Part shown: in pieces, positions 21,261 to 61,161 of the stretch
Position numbering within the stretch: position 1 is the stretch's first letter
How the letters are laid out: each line of letters starts with the position of its first letter
Virus record (IMG/VR): IMGVR_UViG_3300005253_000004
Location: 55,471 to 119,470 of that record
DNA: 64,000 bases
Reading direction: 5' to 3' (one strand)
Origin: a virus
The notes under the pieces: generated by a model
The model's input: the letters and a program-made list of their open reading frames with translations, nothing else
What the model was told of the DNA's origin: nothing
The model's database searches: none
Translations under genes and position numbers: made by a program

Positions 21261-21403
21261 TTCTCCTCATTGGACAACGAGCCATCGCTCTTGCTCATGT
21301 AACAGTCACCGATGGCCTTCATCGGTGCGTAACACCACGCGCATGGTTGGTTGTTCTTCACGCATTGTGCCTCATGGTGGCATTCAGTGCAATGTATTGT
21401 CAT
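21257..21403 (-). CDS. small Zn-ribbon protein
   Basis: CTECHHE...CAWCYAPM after GGAGG. Confidence 0.6.
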   Translation of the reverse strand: MTIHCTECHHEAQCVKNNQPCAWCYAPMKAIGDCYMSKSDGSLSNEEK

Positions 21404-21482
21404 ACTACCTCCGTGCTGTGACGGTAAAGAACAACCAAGATACCAAAACAATTCCTACAAAATGATACCACTCCATAGCGTA

Positions 21483-21561
21483 CTCCAGTGACTATGATGC
21501 TTCATGCAGCATAGACCAATGGCTACAAGGCCCGGAGACCCCGTGCCATTGAGCTATGCTA
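21483..21561 (-). promoter_or_regulatory. repeated intergenic RNA hairpin element, copy 1
   Basis: GCAUAGCUCAAUGGC/GCCAUUGGUCUAUGC stem followed by CAUGAAGCAUCAUAG..GGAG. Confidence 0.75.
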
Positions 21562-21948
21562 CTAGCTGGCCTTGAAAGTACCGGCCTTGTTCTTCGTGCC
21601 CATCACCACAAAGCTCGGAACGTGCTCAGACTGGATACTCCAAGCACCTTCGCTCTTTGAGAAACGAGCCTTGCCTCGGCCAGATGCACCGAAGCGGATC
21701 TTCTTGATCTCTTTCAGCACGGCCTCGGCCTCCGGGTTACCCCGAGGTGAACCGAGCGGCATGTCATTGGAGTCCACGAACTCCATGAATACGTACTCCG
21801 TGCCGTACTCGTCGCTGTTCTTGTCGTTCCGGTACCCGATGACTCGTCCGAAACTCCCTTTGGACTTCGGGCTTTCGCTCTTCTTGATGAAGGCTTCGAG
21901 GCGAGCGAGTTCCGCTTTCTGCTGCTTGAGTGTCATCTTCTTGGGCAT
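21562..21948 (-). CDS. hypothetical protein, GKAR(W/F)...WS family (paralog of 27835 and 28412)
   Basis: IRFGASGRGKARFSKSEGAWSI. Confidence 0.75.
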   Translation of the reverse strand: MPKKMTLKQQKAELARLEAFIKKSESPKSKGSFGRVIGYRNDKNSDEYGTEYVFMEFVDSNDMPLGSPRGNPEAEAVLKEIKKIRFGASGRGKARFSKSEGAWSIQSEHVPSFVVMGTKNKAGTFKAS

Positions 21949-21959
21949 TTGGATCTCCT

Positions 21960-22073
21960 ATTGAGGGCCTCTAGTGTGGCACTATGCCTCACTAGCTAAC
22001 CCTCAGCGTGCTGGTCCCATTGACCAACACATCCATTGAGGCACACCACCTCAATGAATCTGCCGGTCGATCT
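21960..22073 (-). promoter_or_regulatory. structured 5' leader (three consecutive hairpins)
   Basis: CAUUGAGG/CCUCAAUG; GUGUUGGUC/GACCAGCAC; UGAGGG..CUAGUG/CACUAG..CCCUCA, then AGGAG. Confidence 0.55.
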
Positions 22074-22079
22074 GCCTAC

Positions 22080-22108
22080 ATTTTGACATAACTTGAGCAG
22101 GTTGTCAA
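22080..22108 (-). promoter_or_regulatory. host-type sigma70 promoter
   Basis: TTGACA-17-CAAAAT with TG extension. Confidence 0.6.
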
Positions 22109-22249
22109 CTCACCTCCTTAGCATTACAGTCAGTGCAAGTGTGCTTCCTCCCTGTCCAATGATAGTAGCAGCCAACGGAACAGATAAAATCATACCTTCT
22201 GACCGGATAGAATACCCACGGATACTGAAGGACCTTCATAAACGACACC

Positions 22250-22480
22250 TCAGCCAGTATCATACGCACCCTTCCTTCGTACCACGTTGTGCATCGTCAC
22301 ACCAGACACCTTGTAATGGGTGGCTAGGGCCTTGAGTGTAGTACCCTCGACGAAGAACTCCTTGCGGCACCGAGCCACCTGTGAGGGTGTCAGCTTCTTT
22401 CCCTTGTCTTTGGAACTCATGTTCTTGTTCAGACCAAGCAAGTGCATGGCTTCTCCTATTTCGATGGGCTTGTGTCTCAT
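22250..22480 (-). CDS. small HTH DNA-binding protein
   Basis: KLTPSQV...GTTLKALATHYKVSGVTMHNVV. Confidence 0.65.
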   Translation of the reverse strand: MRHKPIEIGEAMHLLGLNKNMSSKDKGKKLTPSQVARCRKEFFVEGTTLKALATHYKVSGVTMHNVVRRKGAYDTG

Positions 22481-22490
22481 TTCAGCTCCT

Positions 22491-22805
22491 TCAGTCGTCG
22501 TTCATGTTACGGCCACAGAATATACGCAGCCACCAAGGCTTGCGAAGCTTCTTGAACACCGCTCTACCACAAGCGCAGTGCCAATCTACCCAGTGCCAAT
22601 CTACCCACCACCCAGGCCACCGCTCTCTCAAGGATCTGACTATTCTCTCCGCCGGTTCAGCAGTTAGATAATCATAGAACAGTACCTCTCCAGCCATGTA
22701 AACGGAGTTCTTACAAGGTTTGTACTTTTGTGCCTTGTCATAATCATGCGCTGCACACAAGCACTCGACGTTGCAGCTTACATCCTCCGATAGATTGTGT
22801 CTCAT
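22491..22805 (-). CDS. hypothetical Cys/Trp-rich protein
   Basis: start MRHNL after AAGGAG. Confidence 0.55.
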   Translation of the reverse strand: MRHNLSEDVSCNVECLCAAHDYDKAQKYKPCKNSVYMAGEVLFYDYLTAEPAERIVRSLRERWPGWWVDWHWVDWHCACGRAVFKKLRKPWWLRIFCGRNMNDD

Positions 22806-23127
22806 TTCAGCTCCTTTCTTACAGTACACTGAGTAGCAAGCAGGCTAGCACACCTAGTAATGCGGCGCGTAGCCGTAGTATTGTATCTCGGTTCTTGAAT
22901 CTTTCTCCTATGACCTCAAGCAACTGTTCATCGCTCATTTTAGCTCCTTTTACACACTCTGGAGAAGCATAGCTTAGCAGACGAGGACAGTCCTCGTTGC
23001 GTAGAGTCAGTGCAGACCTTGCCTCTCTCATAGGTGATGATGTTGCCTAATCTTTGGTTCTCTTCGATGTCGAGGCAGCAGCCTGAAATCCAAGGCAGCA
23101 GCAGCAGTACAACGATCAGGTATCTCA

Positions 23128-23424
23128 CTATGTCTCCTCGTTCTCGCAACGGTTGCCATACCAAACCAACTCTTGCATTCCTATTACTTGGTCGGGTGCT
23201 GACTCTCCGCACACCTGACAAGACCAGCCCTCCTTGAAATCGTAGTTGCAGTAGGCATACACAGAGTCTACTGAGTTGGCTTCGGTACATCTTGCATCAT
23301 TAATGTGCTTGTGTCTAGCACCAGCATTCCATTGGCGTCCCATGTGCCGATACCTATGGATCACCCAGTTATCTTCCAAATCTAGGTAGGTATCCTCTAT
23401 AAAGCTTTTGAAGTGCCTGCTCAC
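23128..23424 (-). CDS. small Zn-finger paralog family member (HxH variant)
   Basis: DNWVI...RHKH...CQVCGESAPDQVIGMQELVW. Confidence 0.75.
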   Translation of the reverse strand: MSRHFKSFIEDTYLDLEDNWVIHRYRHMGRQWNAGARHKHINDARCTEANSVDSVYAYCNYDFKEGWSCQVCGESAPDQVIGMQELVWYGNRCENEET

Positions 23425-23592
23425 TGTATCTCCAAATCATTCCAATGAAAGTTCGGATGACATGCCAAGATACCAGCACGGTACGCCAACACTATGGCAT
23501 CATCCATGTCACACTCCAAAGCAGCTAGATTCTGTTTTGCTACCTCTGCCTTGAGTTGTTTGATCTTTGCTGCCAGTGTGTCGTTGTCCATG

Positions 23593-23841
23593 TTACTTCT
23601 CCCATGCACACAGGTTGATGAGCCCTTTGAAATGCTCGGGTATCTCAGCCATGCATACACTACATTGGACTTCACGCTTCAAAGCAGCCCCGTAGCACAG
23701 CGTGTCACAGTGGTGTAGATAATACCATGCTTCGTTGGATGGTGGATACTTTGTATCTCGGGTATACTTTATTATACCCCAACCATCAACCAATGGTGTC
23801 TTAGTAAAAACTAAGCCGGTTACGACAAGACCATGAGTCAT
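23593..23841 (-). CDS. small Zn-finger paralog family member
   Basis: DGWGI...LHHC...CSVCMAEIPEHFKGLINLCAW. Confidence 0.8.
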   Translation of the reverse strand: MTHGLVVTGLVFTKTPLVDGWGIIKYTRDTKYPPSNEAWYYLHHCDTLCYGAALKREVQCSVCMAEIPEHFKGLINLCAWEK

Positions 23842-24015
23842 TCAGTCACCTCGATCTTAGCTACACGGTGCCAGAACACAGCACCGTACCTTTGCTTAGC
23901 CCCTTCGGCTAGCCACACATGGGCTTGGCCCTCGTTCTTGAACCCCGACTCGATGATGACCTGAGTACAAGTCACCTCGCCGGTAACATCCTTGTCCTCC
24001 AGAGTGAAGATTACT

Positions 24016-24288
24016 TTAGCCATCACTGACCCCTTTGGCACCTGCCATGAGCAGCACCATCAAGCCTTGTATCTCATCAGGCACGGGCTCTTCGCAGTAG
24101 TAACAAACACACGGATCGTCGGAGGTGAACCATGCGTAGCTTCCAGGTCGAACAGTTGTGTTTTTGGATAGCTTACGTACCTTACTGTAAACTTTGAGGT
24201 CACACTTATGGTTTGCATAGTACTCAAACAGGTGCTCTTCTTCGTTATTTATGATGTTCCAATTACCTAGAGTAAACAAGGCCATCAC
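24016..24288 (-). CDS. small Zn-finger paralog family member
   Basis: LGNWNI...NHKC...CYYCEEPVPDEIQGLMVLL. Confidence 0.8.
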   Translation of the reverse strand: MMALFTLGNWNIINNEEEHLFEYYANHKCDLKVYSKVRKLSKNTTVRPGSYAWFTSDDPCVCYYCEEPVPDEIQGLMVLLMAGAKGVSDG

Positions 24289-24531
24289 CTGTCTCCTACC
24301 CCCTGTTGAGGTACTCGGCCATAGCTAAGGCACCTACCTCATCGTCCCATTTGTCATACACCACCAAGCCACCCGTTGTATCATCTTGAAGCACAACAAG
24401 GTACTTGTTGGCTCCCGTTGCCACCTTGACCGTCAACACGTAGTACTCCATGTTACCTCCTTTGTTGACCTGTATTCTACGAAATTGGCCCGTCTAGTAC
24501 GAATACAGTGGCCTGTCGTACAGGCATGTCA

Positions 24532-24882
24532 TCAAACTTCTCCATGCTGTTCAATCACAGTGTTGATAACCAACAAGTCACCCTCAGCACGGAGCTTGCT
24601 ACCCTCAGCATAGAGCTTTTCACCCTCAGCACGGAGCTTGCTACCCTCAGCATGGAGGTTTTCACCCTCAGCATAGAGCTTGCTCCCCTCAGCATGGAGG
24701 TTTTCACCCTCAGCATAGAGCTTGCTCCCCTCAGCATGGAGGTTTTCACCCTCAGCATAGAGCTTGCTCCCCTCAGCACGGAGCTTGCTACCCTCAGCAT
24801 AGAGCTTGCTCCCCTCAGCATAGAGCTTGCTCCCCTCAGCACGGAGGTTTTCACGTCGTTTCTTTGCTTCTTTGATTGTCAT
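24532..24882 (-). CDS. heptad-repeat (AEGxKLx) protein
   Basis: 12 full AEG(S/E)(K/N)L(Y/R/H) units; AGGAG SD. Confidence 0.75.
   Translation of the reverse strand: MTIKEAKKRRENLRAEGSKLYAEGSKLYAEGSKLRAEGSKLYAEGENLHAEGSKLYAEGENLHAEGSKLYAEGENLHAEGSKLRAEGEKLYAEGSKLRAEGDLLVINTVIEQHGEV
24579..24852. repeat. 21-bp tandem repeat, about 13 units
   Basis: CCCTCAGCA(T/C)(A/G)GAG... recurs every 21 bp. Confidence 0.95.
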
Positions 24883-25316
24883 GTTATCTCCTATGTTGTA
24901 CTACAGCAGCTCGCAAGGGAACACCCCTTACGGCAGAGTGCTACGGTACTCTGAGATGTCGAACGACATCGCAAGGTAGAAAAACCCAGCGACCACAGCT
25001 ATGAACACCGCCATCGCAACCCTCACTACCACCTACCTCTGACCAGCCCTCGGGACAGGCTGTAGTTCGGATGCACCAGTGTCGGGCTCTTGTCGTTCTC
25101 CAAGTACAACCAGATACCCTTGCTACCCTTGGGACCTCTGGTTGCCAGTCTCAGGGCCTTCTTGAACCACATCGCTTCGATTTGTTTCATGTTACCTCCG
25201 TCTTATCCATGAGTCTCTTCAGACTCTTGAGTTTGCGTATTGCTACCTCTATGCAAGCCCACAGTATAGCAGCAGCACCAACAAATACACCAAGACTAAA
25301 ACAAAACCAGTCCATG

Positions 25317-25598
25317 TCAGCTCTGTACTACATGCTTACAATGGCAGCAACCCTCGGCCTTCACCTCGGATGCCGCTGGGTCGCGCAGGAACTTAGCCCT
25401 GGGGCGTTCTATCACGGTGACGTAGTAGGACATTGATCCTTTGCTTCCAATACCAGGATCACCAGGATCACCAGAGTCCTCACGTTCCCTCATGTTCTTG
25501 ACCATGCGGTTCCGGCACTTGTCGGCCGCTTGGTAGTTATCGAACGGTCCGAGTATGTTGACTCCGGTCCACGTTTGACTTACAATTACATGCTTCAT
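25317..25598 (-). CDS. hypothetical protein
   Basis: follows hairpin element and AGGAG. Confidence 0.6.
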   Translation of the reverse strand: MKHVIVSQTWTGVNILGPFDNYQAADKCRNRMVKNMREREDSGDPGDPGIGSKGSMSYYVTVIERPRAKFLRDPAASEVKAEGCCHCKHVVQS

Positions 25599-25604
25599 TG
25601 TGTA

Positions 25605-25668
25605 CTCCTGTGGCTATGATGCCTCATGCACCATAGACCAATGGCCGAAGCCATTGAGCTAGGGTGCA
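25605..25668 (-). promoter_or_regulatory. repeated intergenic RNA hairpin element, copy 2 (cUUCGg loop)
   Basis: UAGCUCAAUGGC-UUCG-GCCAUUGGUCUAUG then GUGCAUGAGGCAUCAUAGCCACAGGAG. Confidence 0.8.
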
Positions 25669-25670
25669 AC

Positions 25671-25928
25671 TCAGCTCCTATATATTGAGTCCAACGTCAC
25701 GTTCACCACCATTTCAATTTTCTCTGCCTTCTCAGGTGTTACCCCCAAGAGCCCTTCAAACTCCGTGAAACCATAGCCTATGCCTGTCCTGAACGATACC
25801 TCTTCATTGAACACGATGCCCAACGCAGACCCGTCGCTCTTCAGCGTCATCATAGCCATATCCAGACCGTCAAGCCACCAGCCATCTGGTAGGCTAGGCT
25901 TACAGGTACGACGTACTCCTTGCTTCAT
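25671..25928 (-). CDS. hypothetical protein
   Basis: 85 aa, AAGGAGG SD. Confidence 0.6.
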   Translation of the reverse strand: MKQGVRRTCKPSLPDGWWLDGLDMAMMTLKSDGSALGIVFNEEVSFRTGIGYGFTEFEGLLGVTPEKAEKIEMVVNVTLDSIYRS

Positions 25929-26001
25929 TGGAGCCTCCTTGCTAGTCTCCTGTCAAAGGAAAGGTAGAAAACTGACCGTAAAAGCCCACTATGAGCCCAA
26001 G

Positions 26002-26208
26002 TCAGCTACCTTCCCTGATGATACGCTTGTTCTCAGCGTCCCACTTGGCAACAGCCGTCTCAGCCTCGTCGAGCGCGTGCTTCACCAATGTGTGTAGCTC
26101 TGTGGGTAGTAGAGTCCAAGGATCCTCAGATACCACCCATTCAGGGTCACAGAACAGCTTTGACTCAGCCTTCATCACTACCAGCTTAAACCTCTGCTTG
26201 GCGGGCAT
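26002..26208 (-). CDS. hypothetical protein
   Basis: 68 aa, AGGAGG SD. Confidence 0.6.
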   Translation of the reverse strand: MPAKQRFKLVVMKAESKLFCDPEWVVSEDPWTLLPTELHTLVKHALDEAETAVAKWDAENKRIIREGS

Positions 26209-26659
26209 GGTACCTCCTCAGGTCCTCATAGAGCCTCACCAAACGTGCCTTCGACGCTATCAGCGCCGCGATCTCAACCTTCAAGGCTTTGATATCCTTA
26301 TCCAACATGGTACCTCCTATGCTTCGTCCACGCCCAGATCTCGGTTATGCCACCCACAACCACAATCAGTGCTAGTACCATCAATCAATCAATCCTCCTG
26401 TCAAAGAAAACGTAACAAACTAACCGTAACAACCCCTACTAGACCCACCCCCTCAATACCCTAAGCTGGGACAAGCACACTTCTCTGTTCCTATAGGCCA
26501 GAGCTAACTGCTGCTCTCTCACCCCAGCGATGCACAGTCGAACGTCCTGCCAGTAATCAATGCCTCTGCTGAACCACTTTACACCCATCAGAAGCTCTCG
26601 GATCAGGCTGTCGTGCATCATGGTGCCTCCTTATCACCTCCCTGAGTCATTGAGCTATG

Positions 26660-27043
26660 TTATAGGAGACCCTTCAACTGTTCCATCAGGAACAATCTCG
26701 GAGCGAGGATGATCTTTGCCACGGTGAACAGACAGACAAGGAACCCAGCAAGCGTAGCCCCACCACCGAAGAGCCCCAGCATGAAGGCAAAGCACGGATC
26801 TTCGCCGTTCTTTGATGTATCGAGGATGCGCCACAGCTTCACAGTTGCGTACATCACACCACCAAACGCCAAGCCCCAGAACACACTCCAGACTCCGTTG
26901 TAGAACAAACTGTAGGTCAGGATCTCTTGGACCAGCAGCGGAGCCTGCTCCACTACGAAGCTCTCCGTTGATTCCACATACTCCATGACCTTGGCGATGG
27001 CCTCGCCGCCTTGTACCAGCAGTTTCTCAGTGACCTCGTTCAT
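26660..27043 (-). CDS. membrane protein (2 TM)
   Basis: EQAPLLVQEIL, two hydrophobic helices, APRLFL. Confidence 0.7.
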   Translation of the reverse strand: MNEVTEKLLVQGGEAIAKVMEYVESTESFVVEQAPLLVQEILTYSLFYNGVWSVFWGLAFGGVMYATVKLWRILDTSKNGEDPCFAFMLGLFGGGATLAGFLVCLFTVAKIILAPRLFLMEQLKGLL

Positions 27044-27112
27044 TTTGTACTCCTATGGCAAAGAAAACCAAAATTACATTAAAAACCCCTAGTACCCACT
27101 AAGAGCCCAATG

Positions 27113-27322
27113 CTACTTCTCGACGAAGATCTGGCCCCGACTGTCAACCAGAAGCCCCGTCACTGTCTCATTGACCCCTGCGACAAGGCGTACTACGTTG
27201 CTGTTGTTCGTGAATGCCAGCACAAGGTACCCATTGACAATCACATTCACACCTAGAGCCGTGTTCTCCAGCTCCACCTTACCCAGAGGCTCTGCTACCT
27301 CTTCCTTCGTTACGAATCTCAT
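27113..27322 (-). CDS. hypothetical protein
   Basis: 69 aa after hairpin element and AGGAG. Confidence 0.6.
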   Translation of the reverse strand: MRFVTKEEVAEPLGKVELENTALGVNVIVNGYLVLAFTNNSNVVRLVAGVNETVTGLLVDSRGQIFVEK

Positions 27323-27328
27323 AATACT

Positions 27329-27464
27329 CTCCTGTGGCTATGATACCTCATGCATCATAGACCAAGAACACAGAGCCAAAGCAAGCATACTCGGAGTCAC
27401 TCAAGCAACAACGCTCCACTTGAGGCTAGCCTTTCGCCCTTCGACCCTGCGCCCTTGGTCTATG
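27329..27464 (-). promoter_or_regulatory. repeated intergenic RNA hairpin element, copy 3 (26-bp stem with G-U pairs)
   Basis: CAUAGACCAAGGGCGCAGGGUCGAAG pairs fully with CUUUGGCUCUGUGUUCUUGGUCUAUG when G-U is allowed. Confidence 0.8.
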
Positions 27465-27684
27465 CTGCTCAGATCAATTGTCGAGCTTCTCCTCTGTGCC
27501 GTGCTCCATGTATAGCTTATACGCTTGGTTATGGACCAAATGGAACGCCCATAAGCCAGCCAAAGGCCCAGGTAACACCGCTGATAACGACTACATTGAT
27601 GAAAGACACCGGATTTCCGAACTCGTACATGTTCAATCTCCTATGGCAAAGGAAAAGCAGAAAACTGACCGTAAATACCCCTAC

Positions 27685-27742
27685 AACATAGACCAAAGGC
27701 TACAGAGCCTCTAGTACCGCCTCTGCGCCCTTGAGCTATGTT
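27685..27742 (-). promoter_or_regulatory. repeated intergenic RNA hairpin element, copy 4
   Basis: AACAUAGCUCAAGGGC/GCCUUUGGUCUAUGUU plus upper stem GCAGAG/CUCUGU. Confidence 0.75.
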
Positions 27743-27834
27743 ACTTCGGGGGTCAGCCTAACCTCCCATGAGGTATTCTAGCCCTCTGATGGCTGTGTAG
27801 ACTATGACTCCGAGGCATATGATCTCGAAGAGAC

Positions 27835-28128
27835 TCAAGACCCGAACACGGTGCCCTTGAGAGCCGATGCCTTGATGCTCCAGAGGCTATCCTCGCGGCA
27901 CCAACGCGCTTTGCCCCGTGACGAAGCGCCGTAGCGGATCGCCTTGAGCTGCTTACGCAGCTTCAGGTCGTCCTTGGGGATGCTGACGAACACGTACCGC
28001 TCACCGTAGGCCTCGGTGTTCTTTGCGTTCTCAGTGATAACGATGCCATTGTCCTTGCCAGCAGCGGCTATGACGGCATTGAGCTTCTTCAGCTCTTTGT
28101 GTGCTGCCTTCAGTTCGGTCTTGGTCAT
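27835..28128 (-). CDS. hypothetical protein, GKARW...WS family
   Basis: MTKTELK...RYGASSRGKARWCREDSLWSI...GTVFG. Confidence 0.75.
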   Translation of the reverse strand: MTKTELKAAHKELKKLNAVIAAAGKDNGIVITENAKNTEAYGERYVFVSIPKDDLKLRKQLKAIRYGASSRGKARWCREDSLWSIKASALKGTVFGS

Positions 28129-28361
28129 TATGTCTCCTTTTTAGTGAACCCCAAGTTGATCTCTCTGTCCCATCGTTGCTTCGTGAGCCTACGATGTTGT
28201 CGCTCTGCTACCGCGACCCTGTGCTGTTGAGCCTCCACCGCAGCTTTCAGAGTCTCCAGCTTGGTGCTTTGTACCTCGATCCTGGCTTCTTGGCGTCTGA
28301 GGTTGTCACACGCTCTGACGTACAAGTCCATAGGGCTTTCTCTCTTGGAGAGTTTATACAT
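28128..28361 (-). CDS. hypothetical coiled-coil protein
   Basis: 77 aa, GGAGG SD. Confidence 0.6.
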   Translation of the reverse strand: MYKLSKRESPMDLYVRACDNLRRQEARIEVQSTKLETLKAAVEAQQHRVAVAERQHRRLTKQRWDREINLGFTKKET

Positions 28362-28411: not shown

Positions 28412-28708
28412 TTACTTGCCGAACACGGTGCCTTCAAGGGCCGAAGTCAAGACGCTCCAGGCAACTTCGTCCTTGTTCCAGCGGGCCTTACCGTGCGCAA
28501 ACCGGCCCCAACGCAGCGCCTTGATCTGCTTACGCAGCTCCGTGGAGGTCTTGGGGATCTTCACGAAGCTATAATCACCGAATTCGGCGTTCTTCGCGTT
28601 GACGTAGACCTCGATCTCCGTGTTGCCTTCGGCAATCTCGTGCTTTGCGATGAAGGCATTGAGTCGTTTGAGGTCAGCCTTAGCCTTGCGCAGTTCTGTC
28701 TTGGTCAT
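28412..28708 (-). CDS. hypothetical protein, GKARW...WS family, first gene after early-type promoter
   Basis: MTKTELR...GKARWNKDEVAWSV...GTVFG; start reset to ATG after AGGAG. Confidence 0.75.
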   Translation of the reverse strand: MTKTELRKAKADLKRLNAFIAKHEIAEGNTEIEVYVNAKNAEFGDYSFVKIPKTSTELRKQIKALRWGRFAHGKARWNKDEVAWSVLTSALEGTVFGK

Positions 28709-28800: not shown

Positions 28801-29355
28801 ATCCTCAACAAAATCAACTACTTACACGACCGACTTGCCGGTTCATACATGGTAAACCCCCCGCTAAGCTGCTGTTAATAACACTTTTTAGTGATACTGT
28901 TTAGTACTGATAATACCCTAGACAGGACGTGGGGTTACAGCAATAGTGCTTCAATGCCGTGGAGTTACAGCCTTGAGTACCTACTACTGTTTCCAAGGGG
29001 GGGGTGGGTCTATTGGTGTTGCCATCAGCTTAATATATCCAACTAGATCGCGGGGTTAGCCCAATCTGTGTAGTTTTAGACCCTTTTTGCTCTTTATGTG
29101 CTTTAATTAGACCGGTCATTCGCAAGAATGCCTTTATTTACGTGTACTTAGCCTTATTCCTTAGTGTATACCCACAAGAACCCAGAGGACAAGAGGTCTA
29201 GAGAGCCTAAGTAGTGGTTATAACGTACACATGGGGGTTTATGGTGGTAGTAGGGGTGTTTATGGTAAGTGTTCGTTGTTTCTTACGAATCTCTTGACTT
29301 GGTTGAGTCCGGACTCGGGTATCAGACCCCCGAAAAGGGGCCATTTAGGTGTTAT
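28801..29355. other. long non-coding region with short repeats and a G run (possible genome end/pac or origin)
   Basis: no credible ORF; CGYGKRSTTAS motif at 28928, 28958, 29049, 29141; G8 run near 28997. Confidence 0.45.
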
Positions 29356-34254: not shown

Positions 34255-34260
34255 ATCTTC

Positions 34261-34365
34261 ATTATAGCTTTTCTTTCAAACTTTTGCAACCCCCGAAAGC
34301 TTGCAATTTTCTGCGGGATAAGCTATAATGGTATACGTGCAAAGAAAAAGGAGAATTCCTATAAT
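34261..34365. promoter_or_regulatory. divergent promoter cluster: one leftward, two rightward
   Basis: minus TTGCAA(34289-84)-17-TATAAT(34266-61); plus TTGCAA(34301)-17-TATAAT(34324); plus GTGCAA(34337)-17-TATAAT(34360). Confidence 0.8.
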
Positions 34366-34731
34366 TAAGTAGGAGCAACGATATCCACCCAGGAGACTCC
34401 AGTCTCCCTGCTTCGCGAGGACGTGCCAATCTAGAGGTACGGTCATGGGACAGCCCAGCAGAGTTTACCTCGCGCAGCCTTTTAGGAGAATCATGATACT
34501 CTTTTTCAAATACTGGATCGAAGTCCTGAAACTGACCAAGGATCAGGCGTATAGGGTGCTCTACAGGTTCGTCCGGTTTTCGGCAGGTACAAAGGAAGAT
34601 GACGTTGTATAGGAGGCAACTCGTATGCTTAACGAACTTCAACTCAGAAGAAGGAGGTGATCTTTGTTTACGGGCCGTGGTGGCTCCGTGTACAGGTCAC
34701 CATGGTCCGCCCCTCGGGGCACAGGGAGAAT

Positions 34732-36415: not shown

Positions 36416-36525
36416 AGGGGCCCGAAGGGCGCGCCCTGCGTAAAGGGTGCAGTGCGAAGATGGAGTCGCTACCCCATCTTAGGACCGTAAGACCTCCTTG
36501 GCTATTGGTACGCTGGGGAGGTTTC

Positions 36526-36554
36526 TGGCATTTAAGGTAGAAAATTCCTATAAT
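36526..36554 (+). promoter_or_regulatory. class B promoter
   Basis: TGGCAT-17-TATAAT within TTCCTATAATTAGG. Confidence 0.65.
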
Positions 36555-36571
36555 TAGGTAGGAGGGTTGTT

Positions 36572-53482: not shown

Positions 53483-53515
53483 TGGTCTCCAAAGAATTAC
53501 ATTATCTCATGCTCC

Positions 53516-53567
53516 ATTATAGCTTATCTCTCAAAAGATTGCAACTCTTAGAGGGATTTCCTATAAT
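53516..53567. promoter_or_regulatory. bidirectional promoter sharing one palindromic TTGCAA -35
   Basis: ATTATA(53516-21)-17-TTGCAA(53539-44)-17-TATAAT(53562-67). Confidence 0.8.
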
Positions 53568-53603
53568 TAAGAGAGAGAACAGCAGGTTACGGAGGGAGCT
53601 GCA

Positions 53604-54196: not shown

Positions 54197-54715
54197 ATGG
54201 CCTTCTACGTTGGCTCCTACCTGATCCTACAGGATTCGATAGATCTAAAACACGACTCTGATAATTGGGAGTTGCCGGATACGACCGCCCATCAAGGGCA
54301 CATGGGCCAGACATCCAACGTTGAAGAGCTGCTGATCAAACCAGAAGACATGGATCTACTCCCGACCCAGATCCAATTCGGGATAGATGAATGGAGCGCA
54401 GATGAGGGGTTTTCACCTGACCATGAGGCATTCAGACAATTCTATGTGCGAGACGAGGCATTCTACGTTCGAGGTTTTGTGCCGCGTGATTACTGGACGC
54501 CGACGTTTTACCCAGCCGGAAACTTCTACGTCAGAGGATTCACTCCTATCGACTACTGGACACCCATGTTCTACCCAGCAGGGAATTTCTACGTACGAAA
54601 CTTCGTTCCTACTGACCACTGGGTGCCAATGTTCTACCAAACCGGAAACTTCTACGTGAGAAACTTCACCCCTACAGATTTGTGGTCTGAGTTCTACCCG
54701 GCGGATTACTCGTAA
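54197..54715 (+). CDS. FY-rich repeat protein
   Basis: four 21-aa repeats FYVR(G/N)FxPxDxWxPxFYxxGN. Confidence 0.7.
   Translation: MAFYVGSYLILQDSIDLKHDSDNWELPDTTAHQGHMGQTSNVEELLIKPEDMDLLPTQIQFGIDEWSADEGFSPDHEAFRQFYVRDEAFYVRGFVPRDYWTPTFYPAGNFYVRGFTPIDYWTPMFYPAGNFYVRNFVPTDHWVPMFYQTGNFYVRNFTPTDLWSEFYPADYS
54461..54712 (+). repeat. 63-bp tandem repeat x4
   Basis: TTCTACGT at 54461, 54524, 54587, 54650. Confidence 0.85.
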
Positions 54716-61098: not shown

Positions 61099-61107
61099 CC
61101 CCAACGC

Positions 61108-61136
61108 GTGCAAAAGATTGAGGAAATTCCTATAAT
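61108..61136 (+). promoter_or_regulatory. class B promoter upstream of portal operon
   Basis: GTGCAA-17-TATAAT within TTCCTATAATTAAG. Confidence 0.75.
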
Positions 61137-61161
61137 TAAGTAGACTACAAGGAGGACAACT

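Follow-up and report, generated by a model that had tools for sequence, protein, structure and literature searches.

Repeated two-hairpin elements at shuffled early-gene junctions of a phage: candidate RNA-processing sites

Repeated hairpins between early genes are already known from T7, where they are processing sites, and from T4-type phages, where they belong to promoter-terminator cassettes. The leader of the lambda cIII messenger RNA (mRNA) is in equilibrium between two folds, and it is a target of RNase III, with an effect on expression. Substrates of the Escherichia coli enzyme are typically two helical turns long, and where they contain loops or bulges, single-strand cuts leave protective 3′ hairpins, according to PMC1540722. 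For a further layout of this kind, the ESAS elements of Cluster K mycobacteriophages, PMC3203893 gives the function as unknown. Here we describe a family of intergenic elements in a 64,000-nucleotide (nt) stretch of phage DNA, bases 55,471–119,470 of the 119,470-bp IMG/VR record IMGVR_UViG_3300005253_000004 (G000); this whole stretch is the window, and copies are named by window position. The family consists of a long stem (stem 1), in many cases overlapped by a second hairpin (hp2). New with respect to the known systems are a universal CAUAG/CUAUG clamp and a conserved, nearly iso-energetic alternative hairpin that always abuts the ribosome-binding site (RBS).

Four full copies of stem 1 and a half copy lie on the minus strand of the window (Table 1), as a preliminary description of this DNA had claimed. 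All of its coordinates hold, and so do the second hairpin it reported in three copies, ending just before GGAG, and the UUCG tetraloop, which caps copy 2 (GGC-UUCG-GCC). Arms of 14–19 nt enclose tops of 4 to ~108 nt, giving a helix of ~17–45 bp. The core bounded by CAUAG and CUAUG was confirmed, but the helix does not end there; it extends 3–5 bp further (GUAn/nUGC), bringing the overlap with hp2 to as much as 9 nt. Copy 2 gains five flank pairs outside the core, and copy 3 folds into 44 bp, its sense strand 24.7 kcal/mol better than its antisense. A C·U mismatch beside a U-G pair and a bulged A are retained in the stem-1 subfamily. Folding z-scores of the four stems fall well below shuffled controls, and that of the half copy does not. 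Allowing up to two mismatches, the arm pattern has nine matches in the window against 1.64 expected, a count reached in none of 100 shuffles, and seven of the nine are arms of the four copies. Among 5-mers, CATAG shows the strongest enrichment on the coding strand of 21.0–28.2 kb (22 found, 5.5 expected), and it also abuts GGAG at several RBSs.

Table 1 Stem 1, hp2 and associated features in the window
Feature	Position	Strand	Details
Stem 1, copy 1	21505..21563 (core 21510–21558 plus 5-nt paired flanks)	minus	z −3.97; 72.3 bits sense, 28.6 antisense; starts directly after tandem TAG TAG stops of 128-amino-acid (aa) gene 21562–21948
hp2, copy 1	21492..21514	minus	CUAUGCUGC-AUGAA-GCAUCAUAG; shares CUAUG(CUGC) with 3′ arm of stem 1; 8 bp; matched by 33/1000 shuffles
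GGAG and ATG after copy 1	21474..21486	minus	GGAG 21483–21486; ATG 21474–21476 opens 23-codon hydrophobic open reading frame (ORF) 21405–21476
Stem 1, copy 2 (minimal form with UUCG cap)	25627..25668 (core 25632–25663)	minus	z −1.74; 45.8 bits; starts 7 nt past TGA of 85-aa gene 25671–25928
hp2, copy 2	25614..25636	minus	9 bp; matched by 6/1000 shuffles; then CCACA-GGAG (25605–25608) and ATG 25596–25598 of 93-aa gene
Half copy (5′ arm only)	26646..26659	minus	z −1.10; directly after TAA of 127-aa gene 26660–27043
Stem 1, copy 3 (long branched top; base fully paired, ACC/GGU)	27351..27469 (core 27356–27464)	minus	z −3.70; 53.3 bits
hp2, copy 3	27338..27360	minus	9 bp; matched by 7/1000 shuffles; then GGAG 27329–27332 and ATG 27320–27322 of 69-aa gene 27113–27322
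Stem 1, copy 4	27682..27745 (core 27687–27740)	minus	z −3.34; 75.8 bits; without hp2, followed by D9 motif
D9 motif after copy 4	27637..27684	minus	GUAGGGGUAUUUAC, U-rich tract, CAUAGGAG; ATG 27628–27630 opens 33-codon ORF
Promoter-like site, sigma-70 type, TTGCAA-17-TATAAT	34261..34289	minus	Heads leftward small-gene block holding copies 2–4
Second promoter-like site, TTGACA-17-CAAAAT, with TG	22080..22108	minus	Upstream of 128-aa gene and copy 1; conserved in G002

Related contigs carry eight extra copies, for 12 stem-1 copies overall. Four are in the collinear early region of G002, a 119,599-bp IMG/VR record whose terminase is 90% identical, and four are distributed over the metagenome contigs L021, L022 and L023. 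The more distant G001, a 49-kb fragment (terminase 73% identical), has other hairpins with the CAUAG/CUAUG clamp. The total is 22 clamped hairpins from five contig sets, every one on the coding strand, and the clamp is the sole feature kept family-wide; in some hairpins of L022, L021 and G001 it occurs as tandem 8-nt units. At least 20 bp are paired in the minimum-energy fold of 17 of the 22 elements, the others having 11, 15, 17 and 18 bp within the core. Seven clamped hairpins lie within 9.2 kb of L022. The minus-strand intergenic hairpins of related contigs reach a clamp-to-clamp length of 216 nt, and several have their own short hairpin ahead of the RBS; those at L022 940–1155, 1381–1486, 2770–2877 and 4277–4340, L021 26–99 and L148 464–551 have tandem 8-nt arms, CAUAGCYU with RGGCUAUG, and two more lie at L022 4625–4680 and 5920–5978.

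Covariation in homologues, on which the preliminary description had made its proposal depend, is present. In an alignment of 12 long-stem sequences from five contigs (23 pairs), 95.2% of cells pair and six pairs change on both sides, a result matched by none of 500 shuffles, and slid registers of the same alignment pair at only 27–52%. Column 16-105 reads UA, AU, GU or GC, and one copy carries the double change GGC/GCC to GGA/UCC. Of the 22 elements, 20 fold better on the sense strand, G-U pairs numbering 78 there and 24 on the antisense strand, and the covariance model scores the four window copies at 45.8–75.8 bits on the coding strand against 27.1–30.5 on the other. Together with the recurrence of hp2, covariation and strand asymmetry indicate that the structure acts on the coding-strand transcript: the two overlapping helices are real on a single strand of coding polarity, most simply mRNA. 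The proposal of RNA-level structure on the minus strand is thereby supported, with hp2 varying only between wobble-compatible states and recurring in unrelated versions.

The window copies of hp2 (three) follow the pattern CUAUGnUGC-AUGAr-GnAUCAUAG, with 5 nt from hp2 to GGAG and 6 nt from GGAG to AUG (7 nt in copy 3); in the wider family, the distance from the end of hp2 to the Shine-Dalgarno sequence is always 0–8 nt. Copy 4 has no hp2, 975 of 1000 shuffles doing as well. Across eight aligned hp2 sequences, 70 of 72 cells pair, a figure for which the shuffle control is not significant (182/500). Variation is one-sided, since pairing in the long stem holds the 5′ arm fixed. In the 3′ arm, all five positions at which a transition keeps a wobble pair vary, and the four pair-breaking positions show a single uncompensated change, in the terminal pair of the most divergent copy. 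Of the 22 elements, 14 contain a helix of at least 7 bp that begins exactly at the terminal CUAUG and is matched by at most 10% of shuffles. The inner pairs of this helix fall into versions with no sequence relation (nUGC/GnAU, GC/GC, GCG/CGC and GUGA/UCAC), and G001 provides a clear case, GCCAUAG...CUAUGGC-AUGGU-GCCAUAG. A small ORF beginning at the AUG of the hp2 loop was considered and set aside; its end overlaps the gene start in 5 of 12 elements, which is near chance by a rough estimate.

We compared two predicted folds, the full stem (A) and the upper stem with hp2 (B). The hairpins had been described as mutually exclusive, which is right for the stem base, the only part that competes with hp2, and not for the upper 8 bp or more, which persist in both folds. 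For nine elements, B minus A is +9.0, +3.2, +5.2, +0.2, −1.0, −1.4, −1.5, +0.5 and +7.4 kcal/mol, the first three values being those of copies 1, 2 and 3. Folds are thus within 1.5 kcal/mol of each other in five elements, and B lies 3.2 to 9.0 kcal/mol above A in the other four; as modelled, the element is often bistable and the full stem is otherwise favoured. In silico removal of the 5′ arm leaves hp2 as the predicted fold of lowest energy at the new 5′ end, and this holds for all six hp2 copies tested. GGAG and AUG are outside both folds, unlike the situation in lambda cIII, where one fold hides the RBS. Predicted RBS accessibility with and without the 5′ arm is 0.39/0.28, 0.50/0.51, 0.58/0.48, 0.39/0.53, 0.37/0.32 and 0.67/0.66, changing in no consistent direction. 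A switch that masks the RBS was dropped on these values, and they give no support to the translation switch offered as an alternative in the preliminary description.

The elements sit at cassette-shuffling breakpoints, a placement that the preliminary description had missed. When G000 is compared with G002 and L023, gene order over ~21.4–28.1 kb is mosaic and both sides are collinear, with elements at the junctions. Copies 4 and 3 of G000 flank a cassette made up of the D9 motif and the 33-codon ORF, where in G002 one stem alone separates the corresponding neighbouring gene families. Copy D of G002 is followed by a gene that in G000 lies three genes downstream of copy 2, and where G000 has the half copy after its 127-aa gene, the homologue in L021 is followed by a full stem 1 with hp2. 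hp2 and the RBS travel with the downstream gene, and families F7 and F10 keep both in G000 and G002. A common base sequence would let any 5′ half pair with any 3′ half and, since it is shared by every copy, the repeats may also be crossover points for the gain, loss and reordering of cassettes.

Every copy lies between minus-strand genes. The upstream stop codon overlaps the 5′ arm or precedes it by at most 16 nt in 7 of 12 stem-1 copies and in the half copy, and is 47–94 nt away in five copies; one stem-1 copy, in G002, follows a transfer RNA (tRNA) gene, tRNA-His. No sigma-70-like promoter was found at the hp2-type junctions (21470–21565, 25590–25670 and 27315–27470), nor any stem followed by a U-tract as in a terminator. 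The sequence after the stems reads GnUGCAUGA..., and a terminator scan lists only a sub-stem of copy 4. With no promoter or terminator at hp2-type junctions, the downstream genes must be transcribed through the stems. In G002 (contig L010, 11487–11562 and 1140–1213), a tRNA-His gene is inserted 6 nt before stem copy D and a tRNA-Thr gene lies near the divergent promoters; no tRNA gene of G000 is in the window. A tRNA origin of the 5′ arm was rejected: 12 nt (AUAGCUCAAUGG) are identical to the D-arm region of tRNA-Thr in G002, but the wider family does not have this part of the arm and the match is probably incidental.

The family is absent from RNA libraries (Rfam). Rfam release 15 gives no match at gathering score in the window, and the sole match in E-value mode over 21300–28200 is a chance microRNA (24.7 bits against 82 needed, E 0.43). 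The covariance and Rfam check proposed earlier thus returned no family, and it added no copy in the whole 119,470-bp genome, whether by pattern scan or by a covariance model built from the 12 copies. Both pattern scans of genome contigs were empty, the stem pattern having no match in 596 billion bases of bacterial and archaeal genomes. In viral contigs, the hp2 pattern had no match and the stem pattern hit nine stretches, of which only G002 is related; the other eight appear chance-like and have no proteins in common with this phage except for one weak helicase match. A looser 15-nt pattern was discarded after at least 119 chance matches. With 22 instances and clear covariation, the family is ready for entry as a covariance model.

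We tentatively favour, at somewhat less than even confidence, a reading of the elements as processing and stability sites for a double-strand-specific RNase of the RNase III type in an early, leftward polycistronic mRNA, with hp2 capping the downstream 5′ end. The element would comprise a 5′ strand, (GUAn)CAUAG... (segment 1), its complement ...CUAUG(nUGC) beyond the variable top (segment 2) and, in about half of the elements, a further ...CAUAG a few nt ahead of the Shine-Dalgarno sequence (segment 3). Segments 1 and 2 would form the long helix and segments 2 and 3 the 7–9 bp of hp2. The host enzyme would cut the long helix, as in T7 early mRNA, in or beside UUGGUCUAUG, leaving hp2 within ~5 nt of the new 5′ end. 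On the upstream mRNA, the retained part of the stem would shield the 3′ end; on the downstream mRNA, the released 3′ strand and segment 3 would together form hp2 just before the RBS, at the newly made 5′ end or close to it. Each small early gene would thereby acquire an individual stability. We infer each of these steps, from helix to cut to cap. The reading is favoured because the helix reaches at least 20 bp in most elements, because it contains a conserved mismatch and bulge, because terminator and promoter features are lacking, and because T7 sets a precedent, its sites being cut once owing to irregularities within the helix, with a protective hairpin left at the 3′ end (PMC1540722). If it is true, dozens of small shuffled genes would obtain their own mRNA stability without their own promoters, and the element would be a compact natural insulator for multi-gene constructs.

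The T7 early sites (R0.3, R0.5, R1, R1.1 and R1.3) are likewise similar hairpins repeated between genes of a host-transcribed early operon, although transcription itself is presumed here, and they likewise lack a U-tract and have an irregularity within the helix. As in T7, the elements are intercistronic and downstream of promoter-like sites (34289 and 22108), and the 17 long elements reach the helix of about two turns (~20 bp or more) given in PMC1540722. The likeness of R0.3, R0.5 and R1.1 to the stems is by eye only (CUCAAGG...GCCUUU...UAUGAU), and the T7 sites have an open internal loop where our stems have one mismatch and one bulge. The earlier suggestion of processing sites fits the anatomy (mostly at least 20 bp, no U-tract or promoter, inside a long operon); similarity to the T7 sites is not significant with either of two models. 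The T7 site positions used are presumed ones, the two T7 records carrying no annotation of these sites.

Several points weigh against the processing reading. The stem model, applied to 8.6 kb of T7, detects only the R1.3 region, without significance (12.4 bits, E 0.089, rank 2 of 9), and a model of four T7 sites has none of the four window stems among its five matches at E ≤10. T7 sites have no second overlapping hairpin by the RBS, and so no counterpart of hp2, and hp2 is itself lacking from 8 of 22 elements. Because the two predicted folds are so often close in energy, hp2 could form without cleavage, to which the preliminary description had tied the refolding. G-richness of the coding strand would on its own produce some excess of G-U pairs and accounts for part of the strand asymmetry. 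The conserved base sequence exceeds the known needs of RNase III and could instead reflect a sequence-specific factor or recombination between copies. No RNase III of the phage was found among the 29 large ORFs scanned, most small ORFs being outside that scan, and a host RNase III was likewise not identified. Finally, the sequencing runs that contain the stretch are three DNA runs of one marine-sediment study, with no RNA run among them.

Two other described families are close in layout. In PMC2839356, the PeSLs (promoter-early stem-loops) of the T4-type phages RB49 and phi1 are repeated composite motifs that fill the stop-to-start gap in a variable region of small genes of unknown function, combine a stem-loop containing G-U pairs with a Shine-Dalgarno sequence at the 3′ end, and lie at breakpoints of insertion, deletion or replacement between close relatives, as our elements do. 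The same text defines PeSLs by a strong sigma-70-like early promoter, of which there is none at these junctions, and gives them short G/C-tract terminator stems, in contrast to helices of 17–45 bp with no U-tract and an alternative second hairpin. SAS and ESAS (start-associated sequences and their extended form), as described in PMC3203893, comprise a conserved RBS-containing sequence in a single orientation, comparable to CAUAG...GGAG here, preceded in about half of cases by imperfect inverted repeats around a variable spacer. ESAS repeats there are 17 bp with a spacer of 4–13 bp beside a 13-bp SAS, dimensions that our 14–19-nt arms and tops of up to ~108 nt do not share; the consensus is unrelated, the source is not known to describe an alternative pairing, and the phage group and host differ, so that the likeness is one of layout only. 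The stems also differ from an intrinsic terminator, a G+C-rich hairpin followed directly by a U-tract.

Shuffling and RNA structure could be parts of a single device. A portable 'cassette joint' would, as DNA, let cassettes recombine in register through its universal base sequence and, as RNA, fold at each new junction into a three-segment structure, either a long stem or a short RBS-side hairpin, that cuts the transcript, caps both ends and insulates the RBS. We regard this broader proposal as doubtful, though worth considering; it would give the promoter-terminator PeSL an RNA-based equivalent and would explain arm conservation far beyond the needs of pairing. A role confined to DNA, as a single-stranded recombination site of the attC kind or as a spreading repeat or miniature mobile element tolerated between genes, is quite improbable. 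It would account for the position at cassette breakpoints and for a conserved base, a variable top and conserved unpaired bases, features that may recall integron attC hairpins; RecA-like, gp32-like and SbcCD-like recombination proteins are encoded by the phage, and G-T pairs are tolerated in single-stranded DNA too, which makes the strand asymmetry compatible with it. However, a DNA site gives no reason for hp2, which comes in several unrelated sequences, to keep its place beside the Shine-Dalgarno sequence and start codon. All 22 elements lie on the coding strand, and a scan of 29 large ORFs, with small ORFs only partly covered, revealed no integrase, transposase or recombinase. The empty scan of bacterial and archaeal genomes indicates that the element is not a host repeat.

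The conserved clamp might instead be read by a sequence-specific phage factor, an endoribonuclease or regulator, rather than as general double-stranded RNA. Its family-wide retention, its tandem units in some hairpins the enrichment of CATAG and its place against the GGAG of several RBSs fit such a factor, but no candidate protein was identified and the conservation could alternatively come from recombination between copies or from a need for interchangeable arms; we think this improbable too. A switch coupling neighbouring genes, in which a terminating ribosome or a phage protein opens the stem base so that segments 2 and 3 pair and downstream translation is altered, is unlikely, though slightly less so than the DNA-level and factor readings. 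Alternative pairing of segment 2 with segment 1 or 3 is a classical RNA switch design, the folds are often nearly equal in energy, the close upstream stops would be within the footprint of a terminating ribosome, and hp2 is always near the Shine-Dalgarno sequence. The inconsistent shifts in predicted accessibility, the exposure of GGAG and AUG in both folds and the five distant stops argue against it, and the protein family whose genes directly precede several stems offers no RNA-binding lead. Least probable of all is a transcription attenuator or insulator, whose stem would pause or stop RNA polymerase between cassettes, with D9 as a restart promoter where present. PeSL stem-loops act as terminators between small early genes of T4-type phages according to PMC2839356, the conserved GGGGUAUUUAC of D9 follows three stems, and a simple scan finds the copy 4 sub-stem terminator-like. 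At hp2-type junctions, however, there is no U-tract or promoter-like site and an efficient stop would silence the downstream genes; no sigma-70-type hexamers can be placed in D9, and hp2 is left unexplained.

The D9 consensus is GGGGUAUUUAC, a U-rich tract of 21–36 nt and then CAUAGGAG, and D9 stands in place of hp2 after three stems (copy 4 of G000, G002_B and L023_1). As a sigma-70 promoter it is doubtful, and it could be a promoter for a phage factor, a terminator tail or a leader. The repeat family (GGTACTAGGGGTATTTAC, U-rich 21–36 nt, CATAGGAG) occurs just ahead of start codons at 27637–27684, 27050–27092, 26395–26439 and 25947–25993 (minus strand) and is also present in G002 and L023; an inverted copy at 29250–29263 (plus strand) is conserved in G002.

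A basic protein of 97–128 aa is encoded by three paralogous genes at 21562–21948, 27835–28128 and 28412–28708 (minus strand), two of them directly upstream of stems, and the family is also directly upstream of stem copies in G002 and L023. The 128-aa member has 28 homologues, unnamed and 45–100% identical, one of which is the window's own protein. It was dropped as a candidate trans-acting factor, with no Pfam family, no atlas lead and no PDB fold match at E ≤0.001 (model mean pLDDT 75).

The 119,470-bp record has direct terminal repeats, and its gene products include a family-A DNA polymerase, RecA-like, gp32-like and SbcCD-like proteins, a DnaB-type helicase, a ligase, RtcB and a sigma-like protein. 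Megablast against deposited phages gave no match, and the terminase has at best a partial match of 28% identity among them; by these comparisons the phage belongs to a clade without a close relative among deposited phage genomes. Near-consensus sigma-70-type motifs (TTGCAA-17-TATAAT) are kept as repeat families on both strands, at 303–337, 34257–34369, 36525–36561, 53512–53571 and 61107–61143, with divergent pairs at 34.3 kb and 53.5 kb, and both arms of the phage appear to depend on host RNA polymerase.

A leader of ~130 nt lies between the promoter-like site and the 128-aa gene (21949–22108, minus strand), and the block 22114–21554 that includes this site is 82% identical to G002. Within the leader, CAUUGAGG could pair with CCUCAAUG or with the RBS-located CCUCAAUAGGAG, another possible three-segment switch. 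Other repeats in the window are of a different kind. Small paralogous genes of repeat family D3 (8256, 8554, 16179, 16411, 18071 and 24065), sharing a conserved Cys-rich end that bears a ...VPDEIQ... motif, are scattered over the leftward block and occur in G002 and L023 too. A 116-aa ORF at 24532–24882 (minus strand) consists almost entirely of twelve 21-nt repeats, which encode AEGSKLY-like heptads, and three tandem 63-nt repeats (54461–54685, plus strand) lie within a 172-aa ORF (54197–54715), just ahead of a 1559-aa gene.

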